64,000 nucleotides of DNA from Schmidtea polychroa. Its lineage: Eukaryota. The notes beneath the pieces are model-generated. The model did not search any database. It had not been told where the DNA came from and saw only the letters and a list, made by a program, of their open reading frames with translations. A program made the position numbers and the translations under genes. The stretch spans positions 150,660,001-150,724,000 of the forward strand of contig CM097885.1 of assembly GCA_044892525.1 (NCBI GenBank), given 5' to 3'. Below are positions 24,001 through 48,807 of the stretch, piece by piece (position 1 is the first letter of the stretch; every line of letters starts with the position of its first letter).

Positions 24001-27000
24001 CTACCCACCTTTAAAAGCTTGTGCAGGGGTGTGTCTCCGTAGTGGTCTGTGATCGTGAATAATATAGGCCATTGACTTTTAACTACCCTGAGCAATGGGT
24101 GTGTTCTTTCTCGGTTTGCATAATTTTCGATCATTGTTAGCAGACCTCCCAATATCTCAAAATCTAATCTGTCTTCTGCCCATCCGGGCATTTTAACTTT
24201 TACTTCCTTTATGATTTTCTCGGCTTCTGATGGTTGTAACCCTAATCGATTACCTGTTGGTTCGTTTATTTGCTGTAACATGTTTATTCTATACGTTTGT
24301 GATCTTGTCGTTAGTGTACGTCCTTCTGGCTGACTGGTGGCGGTTTTCGGAATTGGCTTACATCGTGCAACATTTACATATATTGGCCTTGTAAAAGGGT
24401 TGTTCACTAATCGTACTCTTACATTAGTTTCTCCGACGAATAGAATCTCATACGGCCCTTTACCGTTTCGTTGTAATTTTTTGGTGGTTCCTGGAATTAA
24501 TTCTGGTGTTTCAATCATCACCCAATCGCCTGTTTGAAACGTATGCTGTTTGACGTTTTTCTTTCTATCATGTAACTCTTTGTAACTTTCTTGATAAAAT
24601 TTTATATTCAATCCTGCGGTTTCCCAGATTTCCTGCATTCTTTCCTTGAACTTGGTTACATAATCGTCTATTTCCATGTACTGTGATATCGGTGGCTGAT
24701 ATTCTAAATCCATTGGCATATTGCATTCTCTGCCGTACATCAACTTGAACGGACTCATCTTTGTGGACGCGTGAATCGACATTCTGTAAGCCATGAGGCA
24801 TAATTTTATATATTCATCCCAGTCTCGTTGATGACGATCGACATAATTTGATAACATTTGAATCAGTGTTCCATTGAATCTTTCTGTCATACCATTAGTT
24901 TGTGGATGGTACGGTGATGTTCTTAATTTTGCGATCTTGAAGTAGTTGGTGACTTCGCTCATTATTTCGCTCATGAAATTCGTTCCTTGATCCGTCAGTA
25001 TTTGTTTCGGCGTTCCATATCGACAACATATTTCCTCTACTAATATTTTTGCGATTGTTCTTGCTTTCTGATCTGCCATTGCGAATGCTTCGGGAAATTT
25101 TGTCAAATAATCTGTGATTACCAATATATATATATTTCCTCTATCTGATTCTGGTAGTGGACCGACTACGTCCATTGATATCATCGTCATTGGTTCTGCT
25201 GGCACTGGCATTGGCTTTAATGGTGCCTTCCATTTTGTTCCCGTGTTTTTTCTGGTTGCGCAAGTTATGCAATTTTTCACCCATTCCGTTACATCCTCGG
25301 TCAATGTAGGCCAAAAATATTTTTGTTTCATTCGTGCCAACGTCTTTTTAGATGACATATGTCCTCCGAGTCTTCCGTCATGGTATTGTGTTAGTAGATC
25401 TTTACGTCTATTCTCGGGAATGCACATCAGTCTTTTCTCGCCATCCATTATCAATAACCAATCTTTCTCGATAATATATCGATGTCGATGTTTATCCATA
25501 TGCTCCTTCAATTTTTGATCTTTCTCATATACCTCTGCTTTCCCTGTTTTCACATATTCAATGATTTGCTTCAACTCTGTATCCTCTTGTTGGTCTTTCC
25601 GTAATTGGCAAAAATCTAAATCTTCTGCTACCATCAGACATATTCGTTGCATTTCGTGATCTACTAAATCTGGAAAGATAAATCTGGACATACAATCCGC
25701 ATTGGCATTCGCTCTTCCCGCTTTGAATTTTATGAACGGTGAATATTCTTGTAACTGCATTGCCCATCGCATCAATCTACTTGAAGCTTCTTTGTGTTGA
25801 CCAAGCCATACTAATGGTTGATGATCCGTGGTGATACATATTTCGTGTCCCCATAACAAATATCGAAAGTGTTTAATTGCTTGTATGATTGCTAACGCTT
25901 CTCTCTCGGTTACGGAATAGTTTTTCTCGTGTTTTTTAAACGTTCTACTGTAGTATCCAATCACTCTTTCTTTTCCTTCTTCGTCGAGTTGTCCCAATAT
26001 TGCTCCGGCTGCATATCCACTTGCATCTGTTGCTAATAGGAACGGTTTCTTGAAATCAGGATGTACTAGTATTGGGGCTTCAATTAATTTATCTCGCAAT
26101 GTCTCAAACGCTTTTTGTTGTTCTGCACCCCAAATAAATGGAATATCCTTTTTCACTAATTCCTGTATTGGTTTCGCAATACCTGCATAGTTTTTGATGA
26201 ATTTTCGATAATATCCGCATAATCCGAGAAATTCTTGAACTTGGGTGACAGTTTTTGGTGCTGGACATGTTTTTATTTTTTCTAGGTTTCTTGGATCTGG
26301 TTCTTTGCCTTTTGCTGACACTATGTGTCCTAAGAACGTAACTTTTTCTTTTGCCCAATCACATTTGGATGGTTTAAGTTTCAGTTTCCATTGTCGTAAT
26401 CTAACGAACACATTTCTGATATCTTCCAAATGTTGTTCGAATGTTGCTGAATATATTAATAAATCATCAATATATACCATACACTGCTTGATCCCGTGTG
26501 TGACAAAATTCATACATCTCTGGAATGATGCTGGGGCATTGGTCAGTCCGAACGGCATTTTCCTGAATTGGTATAGATCTCGGCCCAATGTGAATGCTGT
26601 TTTCTCTTTGTCTTCCTCCTTGACTTTGATCTGCCAATATCCGCTTTTCAGATCTAAAGATGTAAAATATGCGGCCCCCTGTAACATAAGTAACATCTCA
26701 TTGATGTCTGGTAACGGGTATGTGTCTCTTTTTGTTACTGCATTTAATTTCCGATAATCGATACAGAATCTCTGAGTACCGTCTTTTTTCTTCACCATGA
26801 CTACTGGAAATTGCCATGGCGAACAACTTGGTTCGATCACTTGTGCATCTAGCATTTTTTGTACTTCGGCTTCGGCTATCTCTTTTTGCTTCTCCGCTAG
26901 TTTGTATGGGCGTAGTGCGATTGGAGTTTCGTCTATTAATGGTATTGCGTGTAATGTAACATCGCATGCTCCCAAATCTAAATCCGAAATTGCGAATATA

Positions 27001-30000
27001 TCTTTATATTCTATCAATAATTGTTGAAGTCTCTCCTTTTCTTTTTCCGTTAGCAAGGTGCTATCAATTATCCATAATTCGTCCGCTTTCGTTGTTTCGT
27101 TGGTGATTTTTGGTAATTCGATGTCTATCATGGGTGTCAATCTACCCAATCTTTCATTTTCATATATGATCTTGTCTTCTTCCTCGAAATTTGTGATGTT
27201 AATTGGTATTTCCCCGTCTTCATTTATTGTTATTATTTCTCTTGCTAATGGTAATTCTCGTCGTTTTTCGAATGATTTGCTTGGCTCAAAAATGACTTCT
27301 CCTTCCATTCCTGCATCCACTTTTATTTGACATATCATCTGTGATTTTGCGGGTACAATTATTTTCTCCGGACATCTAATTATTGCGTTCATCTTGCATA
27401 TTCTACCCATTTTGTCTTTTAGACACATTGTTGTTAAATCGATTACTACCTCCTTAAACAATTCCGGCATTAAATCCGTTCCGATTATACATGGTTCACT
27501 CAGTTTGGGTATCACCGCTAGATACGTTTCAATTTCGTTATCCTGATATCGTAACGTAGTCCACCATCTTCCTACTACGTCTACGGTTTCTTTACTGCAT
27601 GCAATAATATGGATAGTTGTTTGTTCGATATCCTTCCAACATTTACTGGGTATTTGGTTTATTGCTATTGCTGATACGTTTGCTCCGGTATCTATCATGG
27701 CGCTTGTCTCTTTCCCGTTGATTTGGATCATGACTGTTACTGCCGCACCTCCTGGTGAACTCATCACTGCTATCGTTCTTACGTCGTCCGCTTGGTCTAC
27801 ACTTTTCGTTCTTCGGGTCGGCATATAGTTCATTCCTGGTTGACTTGGTAACTGTGGATACATATTTTGTGTCATGGTCAAAGCTGTTTGTTGTCCAACG
27901 ATATCTGGTGGTATGTAACTTCCGTTGGCTATCCAGGTATTTGTTTTTTCTTTCTCCCAATATGGTGCTGTTTCTATTGGCTTTTCATTCGGGTTTCTAC
28001 TTGGATATGGGTATTTGTCATTCCCGTTGTCGTCATCATCACTATCGCTGCTGTTTGATCGATTCCTAAATCTGTCTAAGAATTTTGGTTTGTTCTTTTT
28101 CAGTTGCGTCCTTGTTGCTTCATCATACATCGTTTTCCGAAATCGTCTACCGACTTCCTCGTCAGTTCCTTTTATTTTTGTCAGTATTTTGATCAATCGT
28201 TTTATTCTGTGTATGTCTTTAGAATGACCGTGCAACACCATTGTTTTCGCCAAAAATGGTAGAAAGCCTACTATTAATTTCCAATTTACCTTCTTTTCTC
28301 TCTTATAGATATCAAAACACGCTAACATTTGAGTTAATATTACTCTGACGATCTGAATAATTAAGATGATTCCCAATATTCCTGCCATCATTTGACCGAA
28401 CACTAGAAATCTTCCCCACATTGCTTTCATCATGTTTGACGTGGCTTGTTGAAAATGATCAGGTGACAATAATAGTTCGTAATTGGGGCCTGACTGGAAA
28501 TTCGTTCCCCCAGTTATGGTAACCATATTCGATAGAATGGATTCCCGTCTTGCTGGGAATAATACGTTTAATCGTGCCGTTTCTAAATCCTCCGGTGAGT
28601 ACATACCTGCTTTTGACACATCAATTGGTTTGAAATCTTGTTCTGTTGCAAGTTCTATTAGTCCAAACTTTTTAGGTTCTTGTACTTCGGTTTTTACCGG
28701 TAACATTATCCATTTCCCATCGGGTTTTTCATATAACGGTCCGTATGCATTTGAACAGTTAAAGGTGTTCGGGTAAAATCCAATTGGGTTCATTATTCGA
28801 GTGACGGGTTGAACGAATCTGTTTCGCCCTTTGTAACTAATTTCTAACTCGTTTGCACATTTCCCTGGTGGAATTGTGGGCTTTCTTGGCAGTCGCGCAA
28901 ATGTCTTGGTACATGCATATGTATACATTACCTCTCCCACCATTCTACCAAAATGTCCATCCGGTAACGGGAGTGATGGCATTGTGTTATCTGGGTGTGT
29001 TATTGCGATGGCTAATTTTGTTTTTAGTATCTCTTTATTCAATGAACAGTCATTTTGTATAAGATCGTAATACACTTTTTGCATTGTCGTTTGTCCTCGG
29101 TGAAATAAAAAGTCCATTTTGTTATTGGCGTACAGGTACAATTTTACGTCCTCTGTTGCTACCTTTCCCACTGCTCGGTCTATTACTTGCCTGGACATGT
29201 AGATACCTGCGTAGTTCGTCCGGTATACTATGCTGTCACATTTGGTGGTTTCTTTTTCTCTAATGAATCTCATGCCGATATCTGGGTCATCTGTAATTAA
29301 TGCCGTTGGTGTTTTTTGGGTTGTGAGTCTCTTTTCTTTGGGGGATGGCGGAACTGGTTTCCCATTTCGCATCCTTACGTTTCCATTCTCTTCATCGTCA
29401 TCCTCGTTTTCGTAAATTTCTCCTTTTACTTCATTGAATAGAGCACTTTTTAACAATTGGAGTCGGCATTTTTGGGTGTTAGCTTCATATATTATAGTCG
29501 AAATTCCCGTTCTACACACGTTTTCCGTAGCTCTGCATGCTGGGTTGGTTTTCATTTGATAGTTGTTCGCGTCGAATTGTGCTTCGTATTCCTTCAACTC
29601 CACTGTGTAGGACTCAATTACTACTACTCCCGATATCACCTCTCCTCTGATCGTATATGTGCCTCCGTTACATGATCCATCAGTTGATTTTACTCGTCCA
29701 GCGACATAGATACTTTCTGTCTTGATCATTCCGCTTTGTCCGTGTATTGTTACTCCATCCCTGATTCTCATTGCTCCGGTTCTAAAAAGCTCTTTACAGT
29801 CTTCCCGTTGTATAGGTACTATTTCTTTATCTAATCCCGGTAATATAAGGGTTGAATATGAGTATTGTCCACAGTAATATGCCAACACTTTCTTTGATAC
29901 TACACATTCTCTAGCTTGCGTTCTAATGAAATCTGATTCTTGGTATACGTGATAGGAGACTTTCTTCTTTACTATATCTAATTTATTCGGAGACGCCTGT

Positions 30001-33000
30001 CTACATTCCTCTATATCTCTCAGGGAGTATCTTTCTCCTATTATCGAATTGTCACAGTCGTAAATAGTAAATCCCGCGGCTCCACTGGTGCAGAGCATCC
30101 ATATCATCATGGTCATCATTAGTGAATTAATCGACGCTTTTCTGCTGGCTGGGTCTTTCAATGGCAATTCCCATTCTAGCTCATGTAGTAACTTCTTCAA
30201 CCGAATTTGCATTGATCTCTCTTGCTCGTTTTTTCGTGGCGCTTGTATGAGTCTTTTCCACCCACCGGCGCGGATGATATGTGGTTCGATTGTATTTTCA
30301 ATGATTGTGACGGTCATTTCTACATGATTTGCGAATTGTTTGTTAGGTATTTTCCTTGCTGCTAATCCCATCAAATTGTACATTAGATACGTTAATACTA
30401 CTAAATGATGTTCGTCGTCGTTTGCGTTTAAAGTTAATTGTTCAATTACTCTTCTTGTCTCTTCCCAATCGGTTTTAGTGGTTTTTGTCTTCTCTTTGAT
30501 TAATTTCGGAATTATTCCGGATATTGTATTCCATAGTTGTCTGGCGTCTACGCTTGCTACTTTTCGTTGCCATAACCGTCGCAATTGTGGGTTCGTTATT
30601 ATTAGCATATCTTTTACTAGCTCTCGTATCCATTTTTCGCCTCTTTCGATAGTTGGCTGGGCCTCTTTTAGATCCCACACTATTTTATCCAGTTTCTCTA
30701 ATCTGACTTGTCCTTGTTCTTGTTTCAGTTGTTCTCTAGTTTTAAATTCCGGTTTTTCTCCTTGCTTCTTGGGTCTCCCTTTTGCCCGTTTTTCCATCAT
30801 TGTTCCGGCTTCCCTTGTATTTTCATAATTCGGGTTTCTCTCGTTATCCGTTCTTGGCAATGAGCTATCGTTATTTCTTAGCCATTCGTTCCATTCGTCT
30901 ATTATTTTGTCCGTTTGACCTTCTGGTGTTGCTTTCGTTGGTCCTTTCTGTCGTTGGAATTGTTCGTCGGTTTCGGTTTCTGTTGTATTATCGATAATCT
31001 CCTCGATACTCAGCTTATTTGGCTGCTGATAGCTAGTTGACGGTTGGCTTGTTGTCCATATTTCGGCTCCTGTCGGCCATCTTACCAGAATTGGTGATCT
31101 TTCTCCAGCTCCTTCATCGCTGTCTTCCAATATAATTTCCTCGATTTCCTCGGTTTCATTCGTTTTACTTGCCACTTTGTTAGGGCTTGGTGTACTCAAG
31201 CTACCTTTCGTAGGTTTACTGGATTTGTTCTTCCTTTTAATCGGTTTTCCCAATGTTTCTGCCATTGTCAATACATTGATCTCCCCCAATCTCATGGGTG
31301 TTATTCCGACATCTGCATTATCATCCAACGATTTTCCGAATAGTTGTAGGTGAAATGGAGTTTCGTATGCTAATTTCTTTTTTAACTCTCTGATCTTTGT
31401 TGTTGGATGTACTTCTGTATCCTCAATGCTTTTGTCGGGATACTTGACTCGGATACGATACCTTTCCTGGGTATCTTGTGCCCATTCTTGGTTTCTCCAT
31501 TTCCTAATAATTTGTTCTAGCTGTTCTGGGTACCATTCGTTATATTGTCTGTATTCCTCAATCGCTTTCGCCATTTCTCTTAGATTGTGGATATTCTCTG
31601 ATGTCTTTAGGATGATGTTAGCCAATGCTATTACTTGACGTTTTTGATTTTTTGTTCCCGTTGCTAAGATATCACCTAATTGTTTATATCTTTCCTTCTC
31701 TTCTCGTTCTCGAGCTTCCATCGCTTCTTCGCTATCCATATCGGCATATTCGCGTTCTTTCTTTCTCATCGCATGAATATGTCTGGTTTCCGTTTCACTT
31801 TCTGATGTAACATCCGTTTCGCTTCCGTCGTCCGATGTCGATTCTATTTCGTCCTCTTCGTATTTTGGAGGTTCATCTTCCTCTTCTTCTGATTCACTTT
31901 CTATCTCACTAATGTCTGTTTCCACGAAAATCCCTTTCCTGATTTTCCATTCTTTGTTTTCCGCATTCCACGTCCTTTCCCATGGGGTTCGTCTGCAGGA
32001 TCTCACACTTAGTTTCTTTATTTTTCCTTGAAGCTCTTTTTCTTTTAACCACTGTTGATGAATTTCAATTATCTCTACTGATTTTTGATATAGCGTTTTC
32101 ATCCTGTCTCGTATTTCTTTCTGGTATGTTATATCTCTTGTTCGGAATTCGTCCATGGGCAATATTCTGATGATTTGATGATTATCCCACATTCCCATTT
32201 CGCTTAGCGAGGTGTCGTCTTCGGCCCGTAATATTATTTTATCGTACATCATGACTACGTCATCTATCATCCCGTCGCTACTCTCGCTTCGTACTTTTTC
32301 CGTTATCTCTTGGTTTATCTTGGTTACTAAGTCATCTACCGTACTCTGATTACTCATCTTTATTCGTCGTTTCTCCTCGTTTGGTAACCATATGGTTATT
32401 TCTAATTTCTGCGGTTGCGTTTCTTTCAACCTGCCATATTTGTGGATCAAATTTATGGTTCTCCAATCGCTCATCCTGAGCAATTCTGTATCTCGTAATC
32501 GGCTCATTAGTTCATGCATGTCTGGAGTTCGTCTTGCTATGAGTAAATCCCAGTTATCTTCGACTTGTTCTTGAATTTGTTTGATTAATTTATCTAGATT
32601 TCGTCGCAAGGTGCATTGTTTTATTTGTTCCAGCTTCAGCTTGATGCTAAAATCGTACTCGGCCTTTGCGTCTTTAGCCCATTCGTGAATATTTGCTGGT
32701 TGTTTCTCTTTATACAATTTCAATATTTGAGTTTCTCCTGGCCAGATCAATGCATCTATTAGGTGCATGTCTGGTTTGATTTGTTCTCCTTGATGTTGAT
32801 ACAGATATTCTTTCTTTCTCGAGCTGCCCAAATGTTCTCTTATCCAATCGAAAAGGTCGTCTGTGACTGCATTTTTTATCCATATTCTCTCGAGTCCTTT
32901 ACTCGTTCCGATTTTTATTACATAGCGTGTTGTCTCCGCTTGTTTCATTTTTTCCATATACTTCTTTATTATCACTTTTTCCTCGTTTGGTATTAGGTCT

Positions 33001-35480
33001 TTTTCGTTTCTTTCTAGTTTCATTATCTTTTGTATGAAGCGTCGGTATGGTATGATGTCAATGAATTCCTGGTTTCTTACCACCACTGGAAGTATTTCCT
33101 TTACTTGTTTTATCGCTTCTTCTCTTTCTTTTCTCAATTTCATTTCGATATTCTCGTCTTCGCTTTCGCTTGTCACGTCGCTTTCTCTTTCATCTTCATC
33201 TGCTCCGATCTTTTCTCTTAGTTGGTCGATATTTTCATTTAACTGTAACATTTCTCCACCAAGGCTACTCACATAATCCTCATCGTCATCTGTTGACAAC
33301 ACCTTCTTTGTTGTCCTCATCATATTAATTCGTAAATTTCTCATTCTTGGTACTTTCTTTAACTTGTTGTTCTCGAGTATCGTTAGCTCCTCTGAGTCTA
33401 ATTCTCGTATCATATTATGCTTTAGATGATTAATCTGTTTTTCATTTTCGTTATTTTCTGCTTCTGCTTCTGTTTTTGTTTGCTCATTTTCTCTTTCGAT
33501 TTTATCTTTTATCTTTTTCCAAAATATTTTCTGAATTCTCTGATTTCCTTTTAGTGGTGTTGTTGAATTTTCCTTTTTTGCTGCTGTAATTGTTTCTTTC
33601 GGTTTCTCTGGTTCGCTCATAGGTACAACTCTTGGATTTTTACCGTAATTGTAACAATATTGCTCCTTTATCTCCTTTACCATCCTCATCATATTTATTC
33701 GTAGTGGTTGTTCTTGTCGCTGCTGAATTCGCTCTCTTTTTATCCTTTCTTCTTCAGCTTGTAGTCTTTGCCATTCTTGTGCATGTTGTTGCACTTCATA
33801 ATTGTTAAGATTCTCGGTGCTTCTCATCATGCGTATATTCTGGGTTGGTTGTGGTACTTGCTCTTGTCTCGGTCTCATCATTTGTTGCATCATCTGCTTC
33901 ATTTGTGAAATTTCTTGCATCACATTCATTTGCTTTCCCTCACTAGGATTACTTTGTCGTTGCGGATTTGGTGCATAGTTATTATTTCGCTGTGGTGGTC
34001 GTTGCTGTTGGCTCCTTTCTCGACAGTCTCTTGAGATATGACCTAGTTGCCCGCAGTTAAAACATCCTCTTGATTGGCATATATTTTCCGTGTGTCCTCG
34101 TCGTCCACACCTATTGCAATTTGCGTTTCGGTAACAATCTCTATCCCAATGTCCTGGTTTACCGCATGTTCGGCATTGTTTGTTATCGTTCATATTTCGT
34201 CGATTATTAAAGTTGTTCCCATTGTTCGAGTTGTTGCGTTCACTGTTATTCCCGTTTGATCGTCCTTGTGGTGGTTTGAAAATTTGATGTGCTCCTGGTA
34301 TAAACTGATTCATCTTGGGTTCATGATTATTGTTATCCCCATTTTCCGTTTTCACCGTGGCTGTTGCGATTCTTCCCTCCTCTTGCATGACGTTCATTTG
34401 TGCTGGGAGGTGTAGTTCGCATCTTGTGGCCCAATCTATGGCTTCTTCTAGTGTTTTACACATTTGACATCCCACCGAGGCCCTTACCTCTTCTCGGCGT
34501 AGTCCTTCTATGAAGTAACCAATTAAATTTTCCTCCGGCAAGTTTCCGTTCATGGCCTTCTTTGCCAATCTTCGCAATTCACTTGCGTATAACGTAATTG
34601 ACTCGTTTGCTCTTTGTTTTCTACTTGCCAGTTCACCTAACGCTTGATTTATTGGTTTGCTGGCTCCGAATGTTTTTCTCAAAAATGTTTTGATGTTTTC
34701 CCAATTGTCTAATTTCGTATTTCTTTCTTTTGCTTCCAGATACACTTCGAGTGCGCTATCGCACAAAAACAGAGGCATTCGTTTACTAATTGCTTCGGAT
34801 GTCCATCCACACACATCGATATAGACTTCAAAATTTGTTATGAACGTTGCCAACTTGTTCGCATTCCCGTTGAACGGTTCGCCTCTAAATTTTTCTTTAT
34901 ATTCGTCGGGTTTTGCTACATTCATCTTGATTGGTTCTTGAAATGCTATTATTTCTTTTAAATTTTCTAGTGATGTAGCTAAACTATGGACGGATAATTC
35001 TTCCGTTGACCCGGTTAGGTTGTTTGTTATATCGGATAGACTTTCTCTACTTCTAGATCGACTGGGCGTATGTCCGGCTGTGGGGTTTTCTTGATCGTAT
35101 ATCGGTGTTTTGTGGGGTCTTTTTGCTCCTTGTGATATTCCTCTCTGCTGCCTAAATGATCGTCCTCTTTTGAGTTGATCTAATTCGTCTCCTGAAAATA
35201 ATACGTCTCCTGGCTTACTTGAAGATCTAAGGTTGGGTTTATCCGTGATTTTCCTTTTACTCTTTTCTGTCTTTTCACGTGGATTTTCTACAGTTAGCGT
35301 CTGCTGAATTGGTCGAGTTCGGTTTTGATATTGTCTTCCTTTGTGCGGGTTCTGAATTGCTTTTCCTGGGTTGTTTGTATATTCTCTGGATTCCTCTTGA
35401 GCTGGTTCTGAATTGACTTGGTTGGATGGATGTCTACAATGAAAATATGATATCGTGTTGCCTTTGCTTACACGAATCAA
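21045..35480 (-). CDS. Single-ORF giant polyprotein: Gag, Ubl x3, Bcl-2-like, chuvirus-like glycoprotein, PR, RT, RH, INT, ankyrin, signal/TM module (4,811 codons)
   Basis: No internal stop over 14,436 bp. First in-frame ATG at 34925 (Met186). Motifs: three CX2CX4HX4C, DTG, YIDD, TDAS, HHCC and D-D-E, ankyrin TPLH repeats. Confidence 0.96.
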   Translation of the reverse strand: MIRVSKGNTISYFHCRHPSNQVNSEPAQEESREYTNNPGKAIQNPHKGRQYQNRTRPIQQTLTVENPREKTEKSKRKITDKPNLRSSSKPGDVLFSGDELDQLKRGRSFRQQRGISQGAKRPHKTPIYDQENPTAGHTPSRSRSRESLSDITNNLTGSTEELSVHSLATSLENLKEIIAFQEPIKMNVAKPDEYKEKFRGEPFNGNANKLATFITNFEVYIDVCGWTSEAISKRMPLFLCDSALEVYLEAKERNTKLDNWENIKTFLRKTFGASKPINQALGELASRKQRANESITLYASELRRLAKKAMNGNLPEENLIGYFIEGLRREEVRASVGCQMCKTLEEAIDWATRCELHLPAQMNVMQEEGRIATATVKTENGDNNNHEPKMNQFIPGAHQIFKPPQGRSNGNNSERNNSNNGNNFNNRRNMNDNKQCRTCGKPGHWDRDCYRNANCNRCGRRGHTENICQSRGCFNCGQLGHISRDCRERSQQQRPPQRNNNYAPNPQRQSNPSEGKQMNVMQEISQMKQMMQQMMRPRQEQVPQPTQNIRMMRSTENLNNYEVQQHAQEWQRLQAEEERIKRERIQQRQEQPLRINMMRMVKEIKEQYCYNYGKNPRVVPMSEPEKPKETITAAKKENSTTPLKGNQRIQKIFWKKIKDKIERENEQTKTEAEAENNENEKQINHLKHNMIRELDSEELTILENNKLKKVPRMRNLRINMMRTTKKVLSTDDDEDYVSSLGGEMLQLNENIDQLREKIGADEDERESDVTSESEDENIEMKLRKEREEAIKQVKEILPVVVRNQEFIDIIPYRRFIQKIMKLERNEKDLIPNEEKVIIKKYMEKMKQAETTRYVIKIGTSKGLERIWIKNAVTDDLFDWIREHLGSSRKKEYLYQHQGEQIKPDMHLIDALIWPGETQILKLYKEKQPANIHEWAKDAKAEYDFSIKLKLEQIKQCTLRRNLDKLIKQIQEQVEDNWDLLIARRTPDMHELMSRLRDTELLRMSDWRTINLIHKYGRLKETQPQKLEITIWLPNEEKRRIKMSNQSTVDDLVTKINQEITEKVRSESSDGMIDDVVMMYDKIILRAEDDTSLSEMGMWDNHQIIRILPMDEFRTRDITYQKEIRDRMKTLYQKSVEIIEIHQQWLKEKELQGKIKKLSVRSCRRTPWERTWNAENKEWKIRKGIFVETDISEIESESEEEEDEPPKYEEDEIESTSDDGSETDVTSESETETRHIHAMRKKEREYADMDSEEAMEAREREEKERYKQLGDILATGTKNQKRQVIALANIILKTSENIHNLREMAKAIEEYRQYNEWYPEQLEQIIRKWRNQEWAQDTQERYRIRVKYPDKSIEDTEVHPTTKIRELKKKLAYETPFHLQLFGKSLDDNADVGITPMRLGEINVLTMAETLGKPIKRKNKSSKPTKGSLSTPSPNKVASKTNETEEIEEIILEDSDEGAGERSPILVRWPTGAEIWTTSQPSTSYQQPNKLSIEEIIDNTTETETDEQFQRQKGPTKATPEGQTDKIIDEWNEWLRNNDSSLPRTDNERNPNYENTREAGTMMEKRAKGRPKKQGEKPEFKTREQLKQEQGQVRLEKLDKIVWDLKEAQPTIERGEKWIRELVKDMLIITNPQLRRLWQRKVASVDARQLWNTISGIIPKLIKEKTKTTKTDWEETRRVIEQLTLNANDDEHHLVVLTYLMYNLMGLAARKIPNKQFANHVEMTVTIIENTIEPHIIRAGGWKRLIQAPRKNEQERSMQIRLKKLLHELEWELPLKDPASRKASINSLMMTMMIWMLCTSGAAGFTIYDCDNSIIGERYSLRDIEECRQASPNKLDIVKKKVSYHVYQESDFIRTQARECVVSKKVLAYYCGQYSYSTLILPGLDKEIVPIQREDCKELFRTGAMRIRDGVTIHGQSGMIKTESIYVAGRVKSTDGSCNGGTYTIRGEVISGVVVIESYTVELKEYEAQFDANNYQMKTNPACRATENVCRTGISTIIYEANTQKCRLQLLKSALFNEVKGEIYENEDDDEENGNVRMRNGKPVPPSPKEKRLTTQKTPTALITDDPDIGMRFIREKETTKCDSIVYRTNYAGIYMSRQVIDRAVGKVATEDVKLYLYANNKMDFLFHRGQTTMQKVYYDLIQNDCSLNKEILKTKLAIAITHPDNTMPSLPLPDGHFGRMVGEVMYTYACTKTFARLPRKPTIPPGKCANELEISYKGRNRFVQPVTRIMNPIGFYPNTFNCSNAYGPLYEKPDGKWIMLPVKTEVQEPKKFGLIELATEQDFKPIDVSKAGMYSPEDLETARLNVLFPARRESILSNMVTITGGTNFQSGPNYELLLSPDHFQQATSNMMKAMWGRFLVFGQMMAGILGIILIIQIVRVILTQMLACFDIYKREKKVNWKLIVGFLPFLAKTMVLHGHSKDIHRIKRLIKILTKIKGTDEEVGRRFRKTMYDEATRTQLKKNKPKFLDRFRNRSNSSDSDDDDNGNDKYPYPSRNPNEKPIETAPYWEKEKTNTWIANGSYIPPDIVGQQTALTMTQNMYPQLPSQPGMNYMPTRRTKSVDQADDVRTIAVMSSPGGAAVTVMIQINGKETSAMIDTGANVSAIAINQIPSKCWKDIEQTTIHIIACSKETVDVVGRWWTTLRYQDNEIETYLAVIPKLSEPCIIGTDLMPELFKEVVIDLTTMCLKDKMGRICKMNAIIRCPEKIIVPAKSQMICQIKVDAGMEGEVIFEPSKSFEKRRELPLAREIITINEDGEIPINITNFEEEDKIIYENERLGRLTPMIDIELPKITNETTKADELWIIDSTLLTEKEKERLQQLLIEYKDIFAISDLDLGACDVTLHAIPLIDETPIALRPYKLAEKQKEIAEAEVQKMLDAQVIEPSCSPWQFPVVMVKKKDGTQRFCIDYRKLNAVTKRDTYPLPDINEMLLMLQGAAYFTSLDLKSGYWQIKVKEEDKEKTAFTLGRDLYQFRKMPFGLTNAPASFQRCMNFVTHGIKQCMVYIDDLLIYSATFEQHLEDIRNVFVRLRQWKLKLKPSKCDWAKEKVTFLGHIVSAKGKEPDPRNLEKIKTCPAPKTVTQVQEFLGLCGYYRKFIKNYAGIAKPIQELVKKDIPFIWGAEQQKAFETLRDKLIEAPILVHPDFKKPFLLATDASGYAAGAILGQLDEEGKERVIGYYSRTFKKHEKNYSVTEREALAIIQAIKHFRYLLWGHEICITTDHQPLVWLGQHKEASSRLMRWAMQLQEYSPFIKFKAGRANANADCMSRFIFPDLVDHEMQRICLMVAEDLDFCQLRKDQQEDTELKQIIEYVKTGKAEVYEKDQKLKEHMDKHRHRYIIEKDWLLIMDGEKRLMCIPENRRKDLLTQYHDGRLGGHMSSKKTLARMKQKYFWPTLTEDVTEWVKNCITCATRKNTGTKWKAPLKPMPVPAEPMTMISMDVVGPLPESDRGNIYILVITDYLTKFPEAFAMADQKARTIAKILVEEICCRYGTPKQILTDQGTNFMSEIMSEVTNYFKIAKLRTSPYHPQTNGMTERFNGTLIQMLSNYVDRHQRDWDEYIKLCLMAYRMSIHASTKMSPFKLMYGRECNMPMDLEYQPPISQYMEIDDYVTKFKERMQEIWETAGLNIKFYQESYKELHDRKKNVKQHTFQTGDWVMIETPELIPGTTKKLQRNGKGPYEILFVGETNVRVRLVNNPFTRPIYVNVARCKPIPKTATSQPEGRTLTTRSQTYRINMLQQINEPTGNRLGLQPSEAEKIIKEVKVKMPGWAEDRLDFEILGGLLTMIENYANRERTHPLLRVVKSQWPILFTITDHYGDTPLHKLLKVGSNEQILETIEAFRDCNISTDQENNQGYTPLMIAANRDKAKDIIIALLETGSKITTQDHNQKNALHHAIEGKSTEAFIILVDLISYEDNREIGNMYDGLFTAIKEKLTTITGILIAWRNPIKNDYMVDINETFTKGENTLMREAMRGHHLFEIPNQLLQRGIKFSNHKDEQLIRKRITNFEKAISQFTDKVQVKFWDTVSVLHMMETMNNIRENYLSIIQVLTAEERINSSNKKKIKMKKVKTRKSEEQVEQPITDIATTSKPKTINSDQEIVVRKAKEVFFEEMQDLSDEAILAKITKTVHTYARDQTTNLDIGKIKTFIPLAFTLPTKDSRTPLQQAILAAKENRAITIIRILRDFGEESNAKNEQGETAMMYAAITNIHPKTLHILHQSGSRLDEISNEGNSTMDWATIQPNLEMIRFICKNATRTEVENICKNTSQFQWNTIRMNLEAMKLLLTWRIPQSNKYAININEFYENGENAMVKNTLTKGGTPKIIMIVLNREDLKFTQNLNEQKRIGKHRRIQLRELVKEWNRKRHVATGRKEFELEAKLARNRVLTAYRRLLNDINVEDDILNDSGGDKDDKDDKDDDNNEKGRNGNKEKEKLEENNQENNDASREKEENNPRNRMKQEEKTNSGKQRVCLLFTNKEMETNMMIMILVLTMVEMITAQGGMRTIKEAKETGNKDNKEEELKQEKKKQVQEQQWDLKEEWDLKERCILGRCMSRAYQRLVLKNEDAEPITEVRIQEAYRNREGKRITKVKGKEVHLGKGGEVVITQLQPRKEHKVCIARLRPGEDCLQYVIQQQPPKEYTICIWRKDTARECRRYPGKRGKKRKIDDEKDEQGKRKKNSEKHQDNYVSEEEMEKIQKMAKEGMNEEIARIRGMMKGNGKDGNLKSTETISTITSKEKAEIISIKQMMWISGIIITGAFLIITGGTIKIIKDRRHHGELEMARIRNFQHRVKRPSNIKQEQWVEAWNAQRPPSSRI
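22730..24065 (-). other. Two ankyrin-repeat blocks (~23720-24065 and ~22730-23015) after integrase
   Basis: DHYGDTPLHKLL, NNQGYTPLMIAA, DHNQKNALHHAI; DSRTPLQQAI, NEQGETAMMYAA, NEGNSTMDWA. Confidence 0.88.
24400..25440 (-). other. Integrase (HHCC, DDE, GPY motif)
   Basis: HDGRLGGH...CITC, DVVGPLP, TDQGTNF, NGMTERFN, GKGPYEI. Confidence 0.96.
25690..26940 (-). other. pol: Reverse transcriptase and RNase H (Ty3/gypsy type)
   Basis: FCIDYRKLNAVTKRDTYPLP, LDLKSGYWQI, MPFGLTNAPASFQR, VYIDDLLI (YIDD at 26463-26474). RNase H LATDASGYAAGAIL, YSVTEREALAII, TDHQPL. Confidence 0.97.
27400..27770 (-). other. Aspartic protease domain
   Basis: AMIDTGANVSAI (DTG at 27684-27692) and the downstream CIIGTDLM flap-side motif. 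Confidence 0.93.
28230..30135 (-). other. Env-like chuvirus-type (class III) glycoprotein: internal signal peptide, Cys-rich ectodomain, TM
   Basis: Signal LMMTMMIWMLCTSGAAG then FTIYDC. Conserved pattern YCGQYSYS, GSCNGGTY, YANNKMDFL, GHFGRMVGEVMYTYAC, CANELEISYKGRNRFVQPVTRI, GMYSPEDL...FP. TM WGRFLVFGQMMAGILGIILIIQIVRVIL. Confidence 0.82.
30240..30720 (-). other. Divergent Bcl-2-like helical domain
   Basis: VIEQL...(hydrophobic helix)...IEPHIIRAGGWKRL matches Bcl-2 VVEEL...LHTWIQDNGGWDAF, spanning 64 vs 63 residues from the first V to GGW. The BH1 NWGR motif is absent. Confidence 0.6.
31261..32927 (-). other. Three ubiquitin-like (beta-grasp) domains (~32705-32927, ~32158-32408, ~31261-31463)
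   Basis: The third, RYRIRVKYPDKSIEDTEVHPTTKIRELKKKL...LQLFGKSLDD, aligns by eye to ubiquitin [30 protein letters not shown]...LIFAGKQLED. The second has STVDDL...YDKIIL...DDTSLSEMG. The first is weaker. Confidence 0.7.
34023..34925 (-). other. gag: Gag domain (capsid plus three CCHC zinc knuckles at 34134-34175, 34077-34118, 34023-34064)
   Basis: EPFNGNANKLATFITNFE...YASELRRLAKKA...YFIEGL capsid pattern. Knuckles CRTCGKPGHWDRDC, CNRCGRRGHTENIC, CFNCGQLGHISRDC. Confidence 0.93.
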
Positions 35481-36145
35481 TCATTCCTTTTTGCCACATT
35501 CAAGCACAGACACCGTTTTAGGGCCTCTGTTATACTTCTCTTCATTTCCCCTCATACGCTTCTTCGCGGAATATAATTTCCCATCAACCCATATTTTTCG
35601 TCGATTTTAAATTATCTATTTGGGGTGGTAACAATTATCTATATAGTCGTATAAATTATCTATAGCTAGCATTTATAATATCGATAGGTCGTTGTCAGTT
35701 ACTGCTTATTACCCCCCATATTTTCTTAATCCTTTTACGCGGTTCCGCTATTTTACTTAATCTTTCATCTCTGTTTCCCCTTATTTGGTTCTACTCTGTA
35801 ACCAAAACAAAATTCGTTTAACCGGTTTAAACCAAAAAAATTCTGTAGAACTTTGTCTACTTATCTGGGATCCCTTTTAATTAATTAATCACCTTCCTCT
35901 TTTACTCATCACTTATTCTTTATTTTCATTATCTCTTTAATTCATTTTCCTTTTCCGTTTCTCTTTCCCACTGAAAAAAAATTTTCATTATTACTTCCCA
36001 CGAGCTCGTTTAATTCTTTCTAAATTCAAATACCATATTTCAAACTCACTTTGCTTCTAGCTAGCTTTAATATTCCATCTCACTAGTAATTTAAATGTTA
36101 TCAACTTGTAGCTTGAATGCTATCTCACTATTACTTTAGGCCTTT

Positions 36146-36820
36146 ACGACTGGCTGGCACTTTTCAACAGCTCAATCTTCTTCTCCTGACCGGTTGGACT
36201 ATTCAACAACTCGATCTTACGACTGGCTGGCACTATTCAACAGCTCAATCTTCTTCATCTCCGAACTGGCTGGACTTTTCACAGCTCAGTTTTAATTTTC
36301 CCTGCCCGGCTGGACTTTTCAACAGCTCGGCCTTAATATCTCCGACTGGCTGGACTTTTCACAGCTCAGTTTTAATTTTTCCTGACCGGCTGGACTTTTC
36401 AACAGCTCGGCCTTAATATCTCCGACTGGCTGGACTTTTCACAGCTCAGTTTTAATTTTTCCTGACCGGCTGGACTTTTCAACAGCTCGGCCTTAATATC
36501 TCCGACTGGCTGGACTTTTCACAGCTCAGTTTTAATTTTTCCTGACCGGCTGGACTTTTCAACAGCTCGGCCTTAATATCTCCGACTGGCTGGACTTTTC
36601 ACAGCTCAGTTTTAATTTTTCCTGACCGGCTGGACTTTTCAACAGCTCGGCCTTAATATCTCCGACTGGCTGGACTTTTCACAGCTCAGTTTTAATTTTT
36701 CCTGACCGGCTGGACTTTTCAACAGCTCGGCCTTAATATCTCCGACTGGCTGGACTTTTCACAGCTCAGTTTTAATTTTTCCTGACCGGCTGGACTTTTC
36801 AACAGCTCGGCCTTAATATC
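36146..36820. repeat. Tandem array, 80-bp unit made of two diverged 40-mers, in the element's 5' leader
   Basis: TCCGACTGGCTGGACTTTTCACAGCTCAGTTTTAATTTTT + CCTGACCGGCTGGACTTTTCAACAGCTCGGCCTTAATATC, repeated exactly 6 times at 36341-36820. Progressively degenerate copies back to ~36146. Confidence 0.95.
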
Positions 36821-37405
36821 TCTAAACTCTGCATGCTTCCGTTCCTTTTTGTCTTTATTCTATACTGTCATCTTCCTATTTTTACTTTTATTTGTCGACT
36901 TAATCTGTACCGCTTTGGAAGGTTTCCCCTTTCCCCCCTTGCTTAAAACGCAAAACGATCGCATTGATCCATTTCTGCATTGGTATGGTGATCAGCCATA
37001 CCGCAGAAACTTTTCAATATTCGCGATGGTACCTCGCCTTACATCTCTTACTCGGGGTGATCGGTTATCCCCTCCCGAACGGTTTTTCAATTATCGTACC
37101 TCCCGAAGGTGGCTCGGTTTATTCCCCCTTTAATCTTATGTTGGGACTAGCTCCACTTTATGTACTCGATTTAAATTTTAAAATACCCTTTCTTCATGGT
37201 GAAAATTATGATACCACAGATCAAATTATAGCTTCGCAAAATGAAATAAACACACAAAAATGATTTATTGATTATTCAGTCCATGCTACATATGATATAT
37301 GATACCATTATTAAAATATTAATGAATCAAATCAAAAAAAAATTAAAATATTTTAGTTTAATTGTTCAACCATCCAATTTCTCTCACCGAGCGACGATCA
37401 CGTAC

Positions 37406-37885
37406 CTAACTGAAGTAGATTGTGTGCTTCTCTTTTATTACACATGTGCACATAGAACACCGGATTAAACTGGCGGCGCATTCGTCACAATGGCTAAGGT
37501 GCCCACAAGGTAGAATCAGAATTTTGACAGGTCGCATCTTGCAAATGTTACAAGTTCTCAAGGCCGCTGCTTTCTCTACTATTGATGTTCGTATCCGCTG
37601 AGACAGAGTTTTGACTCGTTCGCGTATCCTCACATATTCGATGTTCAGCGCTGGGTCGTCGAGACGTTGCTGAAACCATTGGTAATGAATCGACAAGTCG
37701 GTATCGGTATTTGTTGATCCTAATCTGTCGGTTAGAAAGTTTTGTTTGGATATCAGCGGTGCGTTGTGGCTTTGTTGTTCTAGCAGTTCTATTTGTTTCA
37801 GTTTTTCCCTTAATGTTTTTATTGAATCATTTTCTATTTCGACGAACCGGCTTAGCTGTTGTAGATGTTGTCTAGCGTCTGACAT
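37406..37885 (-). CDS. RING-finger protein, IAP/MDM2-type C-terminal RING, no BIR domain (159 aa)
   Basis: CNICKMRPVKILILPCGHLSHCDECAASLIRCSMC...KHTIYFS*. The RING ends at the extreme C-terminus with an aromatic tail, as in IAPs. Coiled-coil N-terminus. Confidence 0.85.
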   Translation of the reverse strand: MSDARQHLQQLSRFVEIENDSIKTLREKLKQIELLEQQSHNAPLISKQNFLTDRLGSTNTDTDLSIHYQWFQQRLDDPALNIEYVRIRERVKTLSQRIRTSIVEKAAALRTCNICKMRPVKILILPCGHLSHCDECAASLIRCSMCTCVIKEKHTIYFS

Positions 37886-38337
37886 ATCTAAATGAATGTG
37901 TTGTTATTATTTGTTCTTACTAGTATTAGCAATAATATTATTACGTTGTATTTAATATTCGTTTCTCTTTTATTTGTTATTGTTTCTAGCTTTCGTATTT
38001 TATTTAGTCTTTTTAACAATCCCCGTCGTATTTTTGACTTTAATCTTTTAATTTTATTGTCATTACTTTCTTTTGTCTCCCCTTTTTAATTTAATAAATT
38101 AAAATTAAACAAAGTAACTAATTCCCGTTTCCTTCTCTCATCATACTCTATCATATACATTCATACTCATTTAGGTTCATCTTTATTCATACATGCTCTA
38201 TTTTCAGTTCGTATCATCATTCTATTGTATTACGATATCGATTCGTTTCAGTCCCGATTCCATTTTTAATCATAATTAATTAAATTGTTAATCTAACACA
38301 TCATAACACAATAATAGGTAATCAACAAATCGAATTC

Positions 38338-38355
38338 ATCCCGGCTGAGCCCCCA
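38338..38355 (-). other. Primer-binding site, tRNA-Pro type
   Basis: Minus strand reads TGGGGGCTCAGCCGGGAT (18 nt), close to the known tRNA-Pro PBS TGGGGGCTCGTCCGGGAT. It lies 7 nt inside the 5' LTR end. Confidence 0.85.
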
Positions 38356-38362
38356 AAAATCA

Positions 38363-41300
38363 TGTTGGCGTATGTGGGGGAAAGAAAATATATAGGCATG
38401 ATTATCATACACATCAGGTGTCATTATTCTACTCAGATCATTCCCTCACGCACTCCAAATGATCATTCGCATATTCCCACATATGAGCCCGTGGTGATGT
38501 TCCACGTTGGTACTGCTCACACGGGTTGGAAAGAGTTAGCAGGTGAGCCCCTGCCTTAGGACTACTCCTAACCCTTTCTCGGTTCGGGTTCTACGGTGCC
38601 ATAGAAGGTCTTACCCATTCTTTACGCATCATTCGGTCCGACCCTGGTCCAAAAGGTAAGACATTTAAGTTTCTACTATATTTTCGTGATCCTTCTCTCA
38701 TGCAATTCAACCGTAGCAAATCATACATACAATTTACACAATCAAAGAAAATCGAACAGTTATATTAGAACGGAACATCAAATTACATTCAGCATTGTTT
38801 AAACAAATGCAAAACATTAAAGATTAGTCACGAGATAACGTCGCTTCTTCAAGTTCGTTCGTAATAGCAGGGGAATCGAGACCCGAGAGAGAATTGGCTA
38901 CGAGAATGCTTCTCCTTCTGCGAGCATCTCGTCGATGTCAACGGGCAACCGGCGATCTTCGAGGAATTTGATACTGCCGGCCGGAACTACCCGGAATACT
39001 TCCTTTGTAGGAATGGAATGGGAAACTGTAATTTCCTTGATAGTTGCTTTGGCCACAGATAACGATGCTTCGAGCGCGGCCATGGCATTTCTACGCTTCT
39101 GATTTTTTTCAGAACGCGTCAGCCGCTTACGCTTTCGATGGGGAAATGTAGCTTCTGCTGGGGACTGAAGGAGGTGTGGCACGCGTACTGGAGCCAAGAT
39201 GGGGTCCGATGGACCGCCAGCCGTAGGTCGATCGCCCGAAAGAACTGGGGCGGGAATTGGCGGCATTTGTGGGCCATGCCCTTTACAACTGGATATTGAT
39301 GAGGTTTCAGCTAATTTGTGGTGTATTGGGAACACGTTAGTCCCATCTTGTATCGGGTACTCGCGAACTCGCTTCGCTAGTTCTGATTCGGAATACACCT
39401 TGTGCAGTGCCTCTGATTGGGCCTTTATGGTTAGCCGCTGGCACCTGCTTTCTTCCAGGAGACTGTCACGGCAGTGCTCCAAACGCAGAATCTTGCTCTT
39501 CTCCTCCTTCATTTGTGGTGGGGAGAACCACGTTCCCTCATAGAGGTCAATTCTCTTCTTCAATTCCCCGATGTACAAGTGGAGCTGTACGATATCGGCA
39601 TTTTTATCAGCACAGGAAAAGCAAGGTCTGAGGGTTTTCCCGGAACTGGTTGAGGTATTCATCTAAATCGTTAAGGAATTGTTATTTTTAAATTAAAAAT
39701 TTACTGGGGTATTATTCATATTTTCGGAAAAAGAAATGTAAGATTTCCCCGACCAAGTTATCCAAGAGTGACCTACCAATCTACCCCGTCGGCAATTAAC
39801 CACCTTCATACAATCTCAAACATCCAAACTAACCCATGTAATCATTACTACTTTATGAGAAGAAAACGGGATTCATGAAAACAATTCATTATGCTAGCTT
39901 TTAGGTATACTTTTTGGGTTTGACTATCTTTAACTGCTGTATGACTGTTACTTCGTTACTATGAACGCTATTATCTTAATTATCGTTATTACCTTTTAAC
40001 AATTATATTTTACTCATTTTGCTGCCATGTCGTTAGATTCTACGCGTGCTATATGATGAACGGAAAATCGGCAATTACCGGGACACCCCGTCTTGTATGT
40101 AGACCCCTCGGGTTTGTACGAAAATCATAATACTCTCACTTAAATTGTTATCATGGATTATAATTTAGTTATTTAAATTTAACGCCATAAACATCGTCAT
40201 AGTGACGCTTAAATCGGGCGCAGTTATGTGTTCATTTGCTTGTCTATCTATACCGTCAACTATCGACGGGTTCGTTATGATGCATGTTGGTGCATTTAAC
40301 TAGCGATTTGCACACCGACAAAAAAAAAATTTCTCGTCGCATCGCCATGTTCTCTGACGCAATCCAGTGGTCTACTAGCAGATACAAGTTTACGACTCTC
40401 TCCCTATGATTAGGTAATGATGATATCCACATGTGCACTGTGACCTAATCTGAGTGTGATGCATGTGTACATGTGGGCGAGCGATTAATAGAGGTAGAGT
40501 TGTAGAGAGATGCTCTAGTTGAGACGGGTACTCAGTTGGTGTGTCCAAAACTCAAGAAATTCGATTGTGTGGGTGACTTGCGGATTCAGTAGATAAAAAT
40601 TACTCTATATTCTGGATTCTCGATATTAGGTCGACTCACGATAAGACCACTCAATACACTTGATCGACTGCCGCCTTCTCAATCAACTCGTTCGATGACT
40701 TTATCAAATTATCAGCTGATTTTCCCCGTCAGAAATTTATCTGGCCATGGGCAACTAATGATTCTCCTATCGCTATTGATATCTTCACTCGGACTCACGG
40801 CAAGTGATTTATTTCCTTATCAAAAAATTTGTTTACTTTCCCCTTTTAGACGAGCCGCTGTCAACGTCAAACCAAACTTTATCAGATATTCAATGTCAAG
40901 CTAAAGTCTAAATTAGTAAATGAATGGGTTTACTCGCTAATATCCCTGCAATGTACCTCTCGGGGTTCAATTTTTAAGGGCTTAGCAGATCTTCCAGTGA
41001 AAACTCTAACAATTCATCGCCCATCCCTACTCAGACATCTATCAATATTCGACGGAAAAGCAAATTTTCCTAACAACAACGAACTACTGATCTCAATCCG
41101 AAAAATTGTCTCCGACTTTGGAAAATTTACATTATTTATTCTGAAACTTCAGCGTGACTTCATAAAAGAAAACGAAAGATCCTCTATCAGATCGCGCTCG
41201 AGGTGAGAAATTCTACTTCCAACAGTATTCCACCTGCGGAGTCTCCTCACCCCTCACGACCCACCCAAGAAGGCAATCATCTCTGCCGCCGTTCTTGCAT

Positions 41301-42493
41301 CGTCGTGAGGGACCGTTTGACTCGTCTTTCACAAAATCAACATTTAATATACAATTTATGAATAATAAAATGAATGAATGAATCAAATAGTAGCAAATGA
41401 ATCAGTAAAAATAAATGGATCAATAAAGCTCACCCGGCGACCCTATCATTTGGACTCCAAGTATGATGTTATTCATTCCACACAACCGCAGCCTCATCAT
41501 AACCTTGGTAGATCTCTCACATGATAAATATCCTTCTCTGCAAATGTCACATTTTCATTTTCAGCATCTTCGGGATTTCTTATGAAGGTCAACCTTCCCA
41601 CTGTTGTGTTCTCTGCCGTGGTACATTTCCAACTCATCCACATCATACTGGGAGCTCTCAGATGGTACAGTCGCCGGCACCATGAAGAAAAGGCCATTTG
41701 TATTTCAATAAATTTATTTTACGAAATGAGTTTTGTCTTTCATCATTAATAAATTAACTAATACATATAAATCAATCGGCCTACCGATAGTTTCAAAAAC
41801 TGGAACGAAATCGAGTTTAAACTGGTTTCAAATTATTTGAAGGTAACTTCTGAAAATCTCTCGAATTAGCGTTTGCGATTCTAGTCCTGAATTCGGTGAA
41901 ATATCTGAAGTCTATGCTCTGTAATCGTGAAAAATTAAAAGTGGTTGTCGTCTAATTTTTCACGTTACATATATAGTATTTTTCGTCCAATCAGGACGCT
42001 ACCTGCTTGTATTTTTACTATTTATTATTATTTTTCTGTTTTTTATTATAATATATTAGATTTTAATGACTTAACTTATTTCTTATTATTATTTTATTTA
42101 TTTTCCTATTTTTATTATTTTCCTCCTATTTTTCTTGTAGGTTTATTGCTACTTTATTGTAATATAATTTTTTTGTTTTAATTAGACTTAAAGATAGTTT
42201 TATTTTTTATTTATTTCTTAAATTTCTCTTTTATTTGTTGTCACTTTTTTACTTATTTTATTCTATTTCATCTGCTGGGTCCTAACTCGCTTTATTTCTA
42301 AATCTCAAGGGGTTTATTGGATTTTATTTAGTTTGTTTACTTATTCTTATTCTTTTATTGTTATTTTATTGTTCCTTCCTATTTACTAGTGAGATTTCTA
42401 TGGTACTTTATATTTTTATCTTATTTCATTTATTTTTCAAGGATTACTTTTCTATTCGCTCCAGTTTTCGAAACTCCACATTTTAGCCCAACA
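38363..42493 (-). repeat. 5' LTR (4,131 bp)
   Basis: Direct repeat of 11840-15970. On the minus strand it is followed by the PBS. Confidence 0.97.
38898..39662 (-). CDS. LTR-encoded hypothetical protein (254 aa), 5' LTR copy
   Basis: Same ORF as 12375-13139 with one Ala/Val difference. Confidence 0.6.
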   Translation of the reverse strand: MNTSTSSGKTLRPCFSCADKNADIVQLHLYIGELKKRIDLYEGTWFSPPQMKEEKSKILRLEHCRDSLLEESRCQRLTIKAQSEALHKVYSESELAKRVREYPIQDGTNVFPIHHKLAETSSISSCKGHGPQMPPIPAPVLSGDRPTAGGPSDPILAPVRVPHLLQSPAEATFPHRKRKRLTRSEKNQKRRNAMAALEASLSVAKATIKEITVSHSIPTKEVFRVVPAGSIKFLEDRRLPVDIDEMLAEGEAFS

Positions 42494-48781: not shown

Positions 48782-48807
48782 ATGATTGAATTTGCGCTTT
48801 TTGATTA

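Follow-up and report, generated by a model that had tools for sequence, protein, structure and literature searches.

A BIR-less IAP-type RING gene upstream of gag in a Burro-type giant LTR retrotransposon of Schmidtea polychroa

The giant, Gypsy-like LTR retrotransposons Burro and GYPSM1 of planarians carry BIR, MATH, BCL2, ubiquitin-like and ankyrin motifs, and in the text of their description the MATH domain of Burro1/GYPSM1 lies within the polyprotein (PMC6431247). The same text notes extra ORFs in the plant Ogre elements, of unknown function and with no RING reported there (PMC6431247). One piece of Burro cargo, the B-IAP of Burro1, reportedly guards planarian stem cells against caspase-driven death (PMC13465017, text). 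That Burro elements carry IAP, TRAF and BCL2 genes is already known, and their link with apoptosis and ubiquitin has been published.

The E2 contacts of cIAP1 include Val573 and Met575. Its linchpin residue is Arg606, the R606A variant being defective, and ubiquitin is held in place by Phe616 from the tail of the partner (PMC6349121). Placing Thr, Ala, Val or Asp at the linchpin of RNF38 lowers its affinity for E2-Ub by a factor of 21-28, while XIAP is active with a Tyr at that position and loses only a little strength in the Y485E variant (PMC12326332). The inactive RING of MDMX lends its tail to its partner (PMC7190642).

Here we analyze a 64,000-nucleotide stretch of the S. polychroa genome (contig CM097885.1, positions 150,660,001 to 150,724,000), called the window below, in which an element of this kind carries a RING gene ahead of gag.

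The element and its 5' RING gene

The window contains an LTR element of 30,654 bp on the minus strand (11840-42493), delimited by a 5' LTR (38363..42493, minus strand) and a 3' LTR (11840..15970, minus strand) of 4131 bp each, and bordered by the 4-bp target-site duplication TTAG. The LTRs differ at a single base, which together with the 4-bp duplication indicates a young insertion. Along the element strand come the 5' LTR with a 254-aa ORF, a primer-site-like sequence, the RING ORF, an 80-bp tandem array, and then a 4626-aa polyprotein followed by ORFs of 119, 462, 345, and 233 aa. The primer-binding-site-like sequence lies just inside the 5' LTR (38338..38355, minus strand) and may resemble the 3' end of tRNA-Pro; 64 of 67 copies have the motif ahead of the RING ORF. 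The tandem array (36185..36904, strand unassigned) occupies the interval from the RING ORF to gag. As delimited from the ORF list and Pfam domains, the polyprotein (21045..34925, minus strand) contains Gag, CCHC, Bcl-2, fusion glycoprotein, protease, RT, RNase H, integrase, and ankyrin domains, the Bcl-2 match being weak (E 0.09). The 462-aa ORF is intronless and TRAF-like, with a RING, a zinc finger, and a MATH domain (19039..20427, minus strand), and its product is a possible partner of the RING ORF protein. By its size, single Gag-Env-Pol ORF, and domain order, the sequence identifies the element as a Burro-type giant LTR retrotransposon, the features present being a length of about 30 kb, an Env between Gag and protease, and BCL2-like and ankyrin parts.

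The 254-aa ORF within the LTR, upstream of the RING ORF (38898..39662, minus strand), has no Pfam match and recurs at 12375-13139 (minus strand). It retains 35-94% identity among other copies, and a TAG abuts its ATG. Elsewhere in the window, pieces of a T-box-like host gene lie at the left end (187-765, plus strand; 1851-2228, minus strand), and inverted repeat arms of about 310 bp, 85% alike and about 1.1 kb apart, at 48462-50236 probably mark a DNA transposon.

The RING ORF itself (37406..37885, minus strand) starts with ATG and encodes 159 aa ending in IYFS. A sequence-only reading of the window had placed it about 480 bp inside the 5' LTR end and ahead of gag, and the measured distances are 478 nt from the LTR end and 2960 nt to the first gag ATG (34925). 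That reading had also described a terminal RING in a protein devoid of a BIR, and both points held on searching Pfam: the RING was recognized as zf-C3HC4_3 (E 3e-8, above the cut-off), and no BIR was matched in the window protein. Nor was a BIR matched in three homologues, while the 393-aa Burro IAP discussed below has one. As it lacks the BIR, the RING ORF protein is, by sequence, not a member of the IAP family.

The same reading had proposed a coiled coil. Helices are indeed predicted, but as several amphipathic segments (residues 3-15, 22-40, and 64-108, with a low-confidence loop at 42-62) and not as one long coiled coil, in an AlphaFold2 model having a mean pLDDT of 72.6 and a pTM of 0.51. 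From this model and profile searches, the protein can be divided into an N-terminal helical domain of residues 1-108 (37562..37885, minus strand), a C3HC4 RING of residues 112-146 (37448..37552, minus strand) whose aligned zinc ligands have the spacing of cIAP1/2 and XIAP, and a tail of 13 residues past the last Cys (37409..37447, minus strand), in which Tyr157 corresponds to cIAP1 Phe616 when counted from that Cys. Predictions of a homodimer, made in two runs with no alignment used, scored 0.00, which speaks neither for nor against self-pairing. Relatives of the N-terminal domain were found among Burro copies only. Among the proteins collected for comparison, an HMM of residues 1-105 matched just the two Burro-type ones, and it matched none of the exons of 13 IAP and host loci. 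Two proteins placed near the RING clade in the tree described below (P0021 and P0078) could be aligned only from the pre-RING helix onward. Word-index protein searches with the RING ORF protein returned no match at near or longer lengths, and Foldseek matched the RING only, with no match at E ≤ 0.001.

Conservation and class of the RING

When 150 of 3593 candidate genome matches to the RING ORF were scored, all 150, including the window's own, had 42-100% identity, and 131 were free of internal stops (stops occurred in 19), so the ORF is, judged on these sequences, not a chance one and the copy number is at least 150. We retrieved 70 copies (the 30 top-ranked ones and 40 others sampled down the ranking) and made counts on 67, of which about 30 are near-identical, so that the counts are not independent. 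The window's family comprises two lineages, A (that of the window) and B, with about 43% identity in the RING ORF. By the Nei-Gojobori method on hand-picked intact copies, the mean dN/dS was 0.10 in lineage A (19 copies) and 0.11 in lineage B (7 copies), with values between 0.07 and 0.12 in every part of the protein, whether N-terminus, middle, or RING. The RING ORF is under purifying selection, with a dN/dS of about 0.1. Lack of conservation across copies had been named in advance as a result that would speak against the gene; with 131 of 150 matches free of stops and with purifying selection, conservation is instead borne out.

Relative to the window, lineage B is 90-97% identical in Gag, 43% in the RING ORF, about 70% in the TRAF, and 35-37% in the LTR ORF, indicating that the accessory genes diverge faster. 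In one copy (L063), dS was 0.39 in Gag and saturated in the RING ORF, which suggests recombination. In the window, as in 9 of 12 other elements of its family, the RING ORF is accompanied by the TRAF ORF. The interval from the TRAF to the next ORF holds no BIR-IAP in the window, nor in 9 of 12 other copies; the remaining 3 stretches gave no information.

A genome search for BIR led to a second, distant Burro family, whose Gag is about 44% identical to that of the window and which has a full TRAF ORF besides a MATH domain inside the polyprotein, the latter as in Burro1/GYPSM1. All three mapped elements of this family carry, at the same place upstream of gag, a 160-aa homologue of the RING ORF protein with 26-27% identity over residues 8-158 (E 3e-17), and this homologue is present in at least 150 copies. 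Being kept in both Burro families examined, the RING ORF is, as far as sequence comparison can tell, old and conserved. Twenty-one columns are invariant over the three lineages, including the eight zinc ligands, Tyr157, Glu152, Arg110, and seven N-terminal positions. Outside the genome, a HMMER search of 1.84 billion proteins returned one full-length relative, nearly the same as the second-family protein, and the other 149 matches listed were aligned mainly via the RING region.

The same three mapped elements carry a 393-aa BIR-RING IAP downstream of the TRAF. Intronless forms of 392-393 aa occur in at least 150 copies (for example L073:1273-2451, plus strand; L107, L110, L116), and this protein is probably the published B-IAP. 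At a further locus (L101-L103; G000:C1:162.81-162.83 Mb), a lineage-B copy ends after the ankyrin region at an LTR, and the 3' part of a second-family element follows this truncating LTR; blastn found no match between the DNA of that LTR and the window LTR.

The assignment of the RING to the IAP-type class agrees with sequence searches of the PDB, where the best matches were cIAP2, cIAP1, and XIAP at 38-45 bits and other RINGs fell far below (MYLIP 27, MDM2 ≤ 19, MUL1 16.5), RNF34/RFFL being outside the set of references compared and the tree. A fold search likewise gave cIAP/XIAP/BIRC7-type RINGs as best matches, at E above 0.001. Of the 149 outside matches listed, 62 were scanned for domains, chosen mostly for length; 39 have a BIR, and FYVE, GIDE, SWIB, and FERM, as partner domains of RNF34, MUL1, MDM2, and MYLIP, were matched in none of the 62. 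In a RING tree of 71 rows and 62 columns, in which 33 of 68 forks are open, all ten 5' RINGs fall into a single group (98/89), together with three ungrouped BIR-less rows. The B-IAP RING is placed with three host IAP-like RING exons instead (100/97), and BIR exons lie upstream of two of these. The 5' RINGs thus stand apart from these three host RINGs and from B-IAP, deeper forks being open, and because they fall in different groups, the 5' RING and B-IAP look like separate captures by sequence. The grouping of B-IAP with host exons points to its capture from host mRNA. In vertebrate IAPs the tail has 13 residues; the host IAP-like RING exons (L134-L136) encode longer ones.

The E2- and ubiquitin-facing positions were then compared with those of cIAP1. 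Among the 67 copies, 61 have an intact RING pattern and were counted, with 6 left out. The tail is 13 residues long in 51, 14 in 8, and 15 in 2, and a Tyr stands at the position of cIAP1 Phe616 in 59 of the 61, in keeping with the aromatic tail noticed at the outset. By alignment, the window RING keeps Ile114 (cIAP1 Val573), His129, and Tyr157, and has Ser144 in place of Pro603, Thr147 in place of Arg606, and Lys116 in place of Met575. The linchpin position is Thr in 38 copies, Ala in 14, Lys in 6 (all of lineage B), Val in 2, and Ser in 1, and the Pro position is Ser in 53 and Thr in 8; with Arg in 0/61 and Pro in 0/61, these RINGs depart from the linchpin and E2-facing residues of a canonical cIAP1-type E3. 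The Met575 position is Lys, Glu, or Arg in the copies, and the second-family homologue has Asp at the linchpin and Asn or Asp at the Pro position. In the copies examined, three E2/ubiquitin-facing positions have therefore changed with the zinc ligands and tail tyrosine kept. The 393-aa B-IAP retains CPMCR, that is, both the Pro and the Arg, and among the 39 BIR-bearing outside RINGs the linchpin is Arg in 27 and the Pro is present in 25.

From the aromatic tail, it had been supposed that dimerization and E2 activation would follow as in IAP and MDM2 RINGs. The tail is there, but activation of the E2 is the weaker part of that proposal, because the linchpin Arg, the preceding Pro, and the Met575 position are all changed. 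The absence of Arg does not prove inactivity, as XIAP is active with Tyr at the linchpin. A kept dimerization tail beside a worn catalytic face resembles, by analogy, the arrangement in MDMX.

Upstream ATGs and splice signals

The position of the RING ORF had suggested an early product of the genomic RNA. This now appears unlikely. Besides the 254-aa LTR ORF upstream, a scanning ribosome would meet 17 ATGs from the LTR end to the RING ORF, and 96 when counted from the putative start site (near 41945), which makes simple scanning implausible; splice signals suggest a subgenomic mRNA. A splice-acceptor-like site (37888..37900, minus strand) consists of a T-rich tract and an AG ending 2 nt before the ATG. 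This AG is found at -4/-3 of the ATG in 66 of 67 copies, though its codon varies, and abuts the ATG in all three copies of the second family; a spacing of 2 nt in one family and 0 nt in the other fits a non-coding leader. A strict form of the acceptor pattern, defined after the sites had been seen, precedes 13 of the element's 691 ATGs; among these are the starts of 5 of the 7 accessory ORFs.

Candidate donor sites are found in the LTR. A CCAAT-like motif (41991) and a TATA-like motif (41975) precede a putative ATG-free leader, the whole spanning 41784..41991 on the minus strand, and a donor-like G/GTAGG follows 41785 (minus strand). Such CCAAT-like and TATA-like motifs lie near the LTR 5' end in 17 of 23 stretches; a donor-like site is found about 205-290 nt beyond them in 17/17 of these putative promoters, and the leader is ATG-free in 16/17. 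In 14 of the 17, an earlier AG/GTAA donor opens an intron-like piece of 46-53 nt, which is missing from the window and two others. In the copies having it, among the loci L184-L197 and L058-L063, the piece directly follows the putative start, and a repeat of the short first exon forms its 3' end; this repeat varies from lineage to lineage but is matched within each copy. In the window it is missing from both LTRs, at about 41915-41945 (minus strand) in the 5' LTR. Aligned with its closest copies (L186 and L190), the window shows a gap whose borders coincide with the GT and AG ends of the piece, a sequence pattern that fits splicing followed by reverse transcription. Simple deletion would explain the loss equally well, since a direct repeat flanks the piece. 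Contigs of four sequencing runs aligned on 34500-42500 showed no joint at the acceptor; the run covering the RING ORF is DNA-like, and the contigs of the two putative-RNA runs do not cover the RING ORF.

Together, these signals make it likely that the RING ORF is translated from a spliced mRNA. We also considered that splicing might add a BIR from an upstream coding exon, and judged this unlikely because the start Met is invariant, because the splice phase differs between families, and because the window has no BIR-like match to the 393-aa IAP. Spliced-leader trans-splicing would be another use of the acceptors, but the LTR donors favor cis-splicing.

The Gag frame is itself open and free of ATG for 185 codons ahead of the first Met (34926-35480, minus strand). 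The corresponding frame is ATG-free for 106-137 codons in 13 of 14 loci (one of which, L102, repeats L057), with conserved amino acids. This stretch starts near an ACG in good context and contains an acceptor-like site, so that Gag may start at a non-AUG codon or via a splice.

Ligase or decoy, and comparison with known systems

The explanation we prefer, although we would put it at about even chances, is that the RING ORF is an accessory gene, likely expressed from spliced mRNA, whose RING acts as a weak or decoy, MDMX-like dimer partner of IAP-type ligases and not as a potent ligase in its own right. It is favored by the changed E2- and ubiquitin-facing surface, by the retained zinc ligands and Tyr157, and by the MDMX precedent. 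The short ATG-free LTR leader would be spliced to the AG just ahead of the RING ORF ATG, and the protein would pair with its partner through the pre-RING helix and the tail. Within such a heterodimer, its tail would serve the partner while it would itself load ubiquitin poorly, thereby changing the turnover or targets of the partner, and its N-terminal helices would bind an adaptor or substrate. Since the window's family has no IAP at the usual place, the protein would have to pair with a host IAP or with the B-IAP of another Burro family. Several observations temper this proposal. Ile114 and His129 are kept, six lineage-B copies have Lys at the linchpin, and Arg is absent from 12 of the 39 BIR-bearing outside RINGs as well; the 5' RING does not group with host IAPs, and the longer host tails may not suit pairing with a RING having a 13-residue tail. 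More tentatively still, Burro control of IAPs might have two parts, B-IAP and an older, separately acquired RING-only pseudo-ligase that would pair with IAPs as MDMX does with MDM2 and, in the window's family, would retune host IAPs or the B-IAP of another family in trans.

The protein might instead be an active, stand-alone E3 homodimer in which the N-terminal helices replace the BIR and which, using an E2 independent of the linchpin, marks host defense or cell-death proteins. We regard this as possible but doubtful. The zinc ligands, Ile114, tail length, and Tyr157 are all kept, the N-terminal domain is selected as strongly as the RING, XIAP functions without the Arg, and this Pfam family has many helical-plus-RING members among eukaryotes and large DNA viruses; yet three E2/ubiquitin-facing positions have changed together across lineages, the second family has Asp at the linchpin, and the B-IAP of the same elements keeps those positions. 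An adaptor for the element's own TRAF, BCL2-like domain, or Gag/Env in particle assembly, in which IAPs play no part, would account for the co-travel of the TRAF in the window, in 9 of 12 further copies, and in the three mapped second-family elements, and for the missing BIR-IAP of the window's family. IAP binding to TRAF normally requires BIR1, however, and the type of tail fits pairing with an IAP-like RING, so we consider an adaptor improbable.

The two remaining alternatives concern the gene more than its product. Reading of the RING ORF first from unspliced genomic RNA, with the polyprotein reached by reinitiation or an IRES, agrees with its location between the primer site and gag, and the transcription start, from which 96 ATGs were counted, is itself putative. 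Yet the 17 ATGs past the LTR end would be met whichever start is used, and the acceptor and donor-like sites are conserved, making this reading quite unlikely. That the ORF is a captured host fragment merely hitch-hiking might be thought from the internal stops in 19 of 150 matches, but with a dN/dS near 0.1 and a frame kept down to 26% identity this is refuted by the selection result, and we give it almost no weight.

In the text of PMC6431247, PMC8532177, PMC11410931, PMC13524379, and PMC13465017, figures and supplements aside, there is no mention of a BIR-less RING ORF before gag, and Grohme (2018) or the Dev Cell (2026) paper on Burro1 may already show it. The ORF is a second IAP-type RING gene, BIR-less and kept in each of the two Burro families studied; in the window's family no other IAP-type gene was found. 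Such a gene could be the more basic tool of these elements for handling host ubiquitin and death signaling. As a small, multi-copy, RNAi-accessible target, it poses a clear question, ligase or decoy. Were the two-part system real, it would be a transposon-encoded regulator of stem-cell survival expressed from its own spliced mRNA.

The closest described elements are Burro/GYPSM1. Like the element in the window, they measure about 30 kb with long LTRs, encode a single Gag-Env-Pol polyprotein that includes BCL2-like and ankyrin parts, and carry a TRAF and accessory ORFs related to apoptosis and ubiquitin; their description, in its text and figures aside, names no RING-only ORF before gag (PMC6431247). 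The window's family is unlike Burro1/GYPSM1, as described in that text, in having no MATH domain in the polyprotein and no BIR-IAP at the usual place. B-IAP is likewise an element-borne IAP-type RING gene (PMC13465017, text), but it bears a BIR, is located 3' of pol, retains CPMCR, and falls with the host IAP RINGs in the tree (100/97), whereas the RING ORF is BIR-less, lies 5' of gag, and belongs to a separate clade, the two co-existing in the same elements. With the RINGs of cIAP1/2, XIAP, and BIRC7, the RING ORF protein shares the ligand spacing, the 13-residue tail, and the aromatic residue at the Phe616 position; it differs from those proteins in the missing BIR, the changed Met575, Pro603, and Arg606 positions, and an unrelated helical N-terminus. 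MDMX (MDM4), in complex with MDM2, offers a parallel, since its RING has little intrinsic activity and contributes the tail in trans (PMC7190642, text). MDM2 and MDMX match the window RING weakly (≤ 19 bits), so the likeness is one of analogy and not of membership. Their ligand pattern also differs from that of the window RING. The extra ORF of Ogre elements lies upstream of gag, as does the RING ORF of the window. Complex retroviruses reach their accessory genes by splicing, which is what we propose for the RING ORF here.
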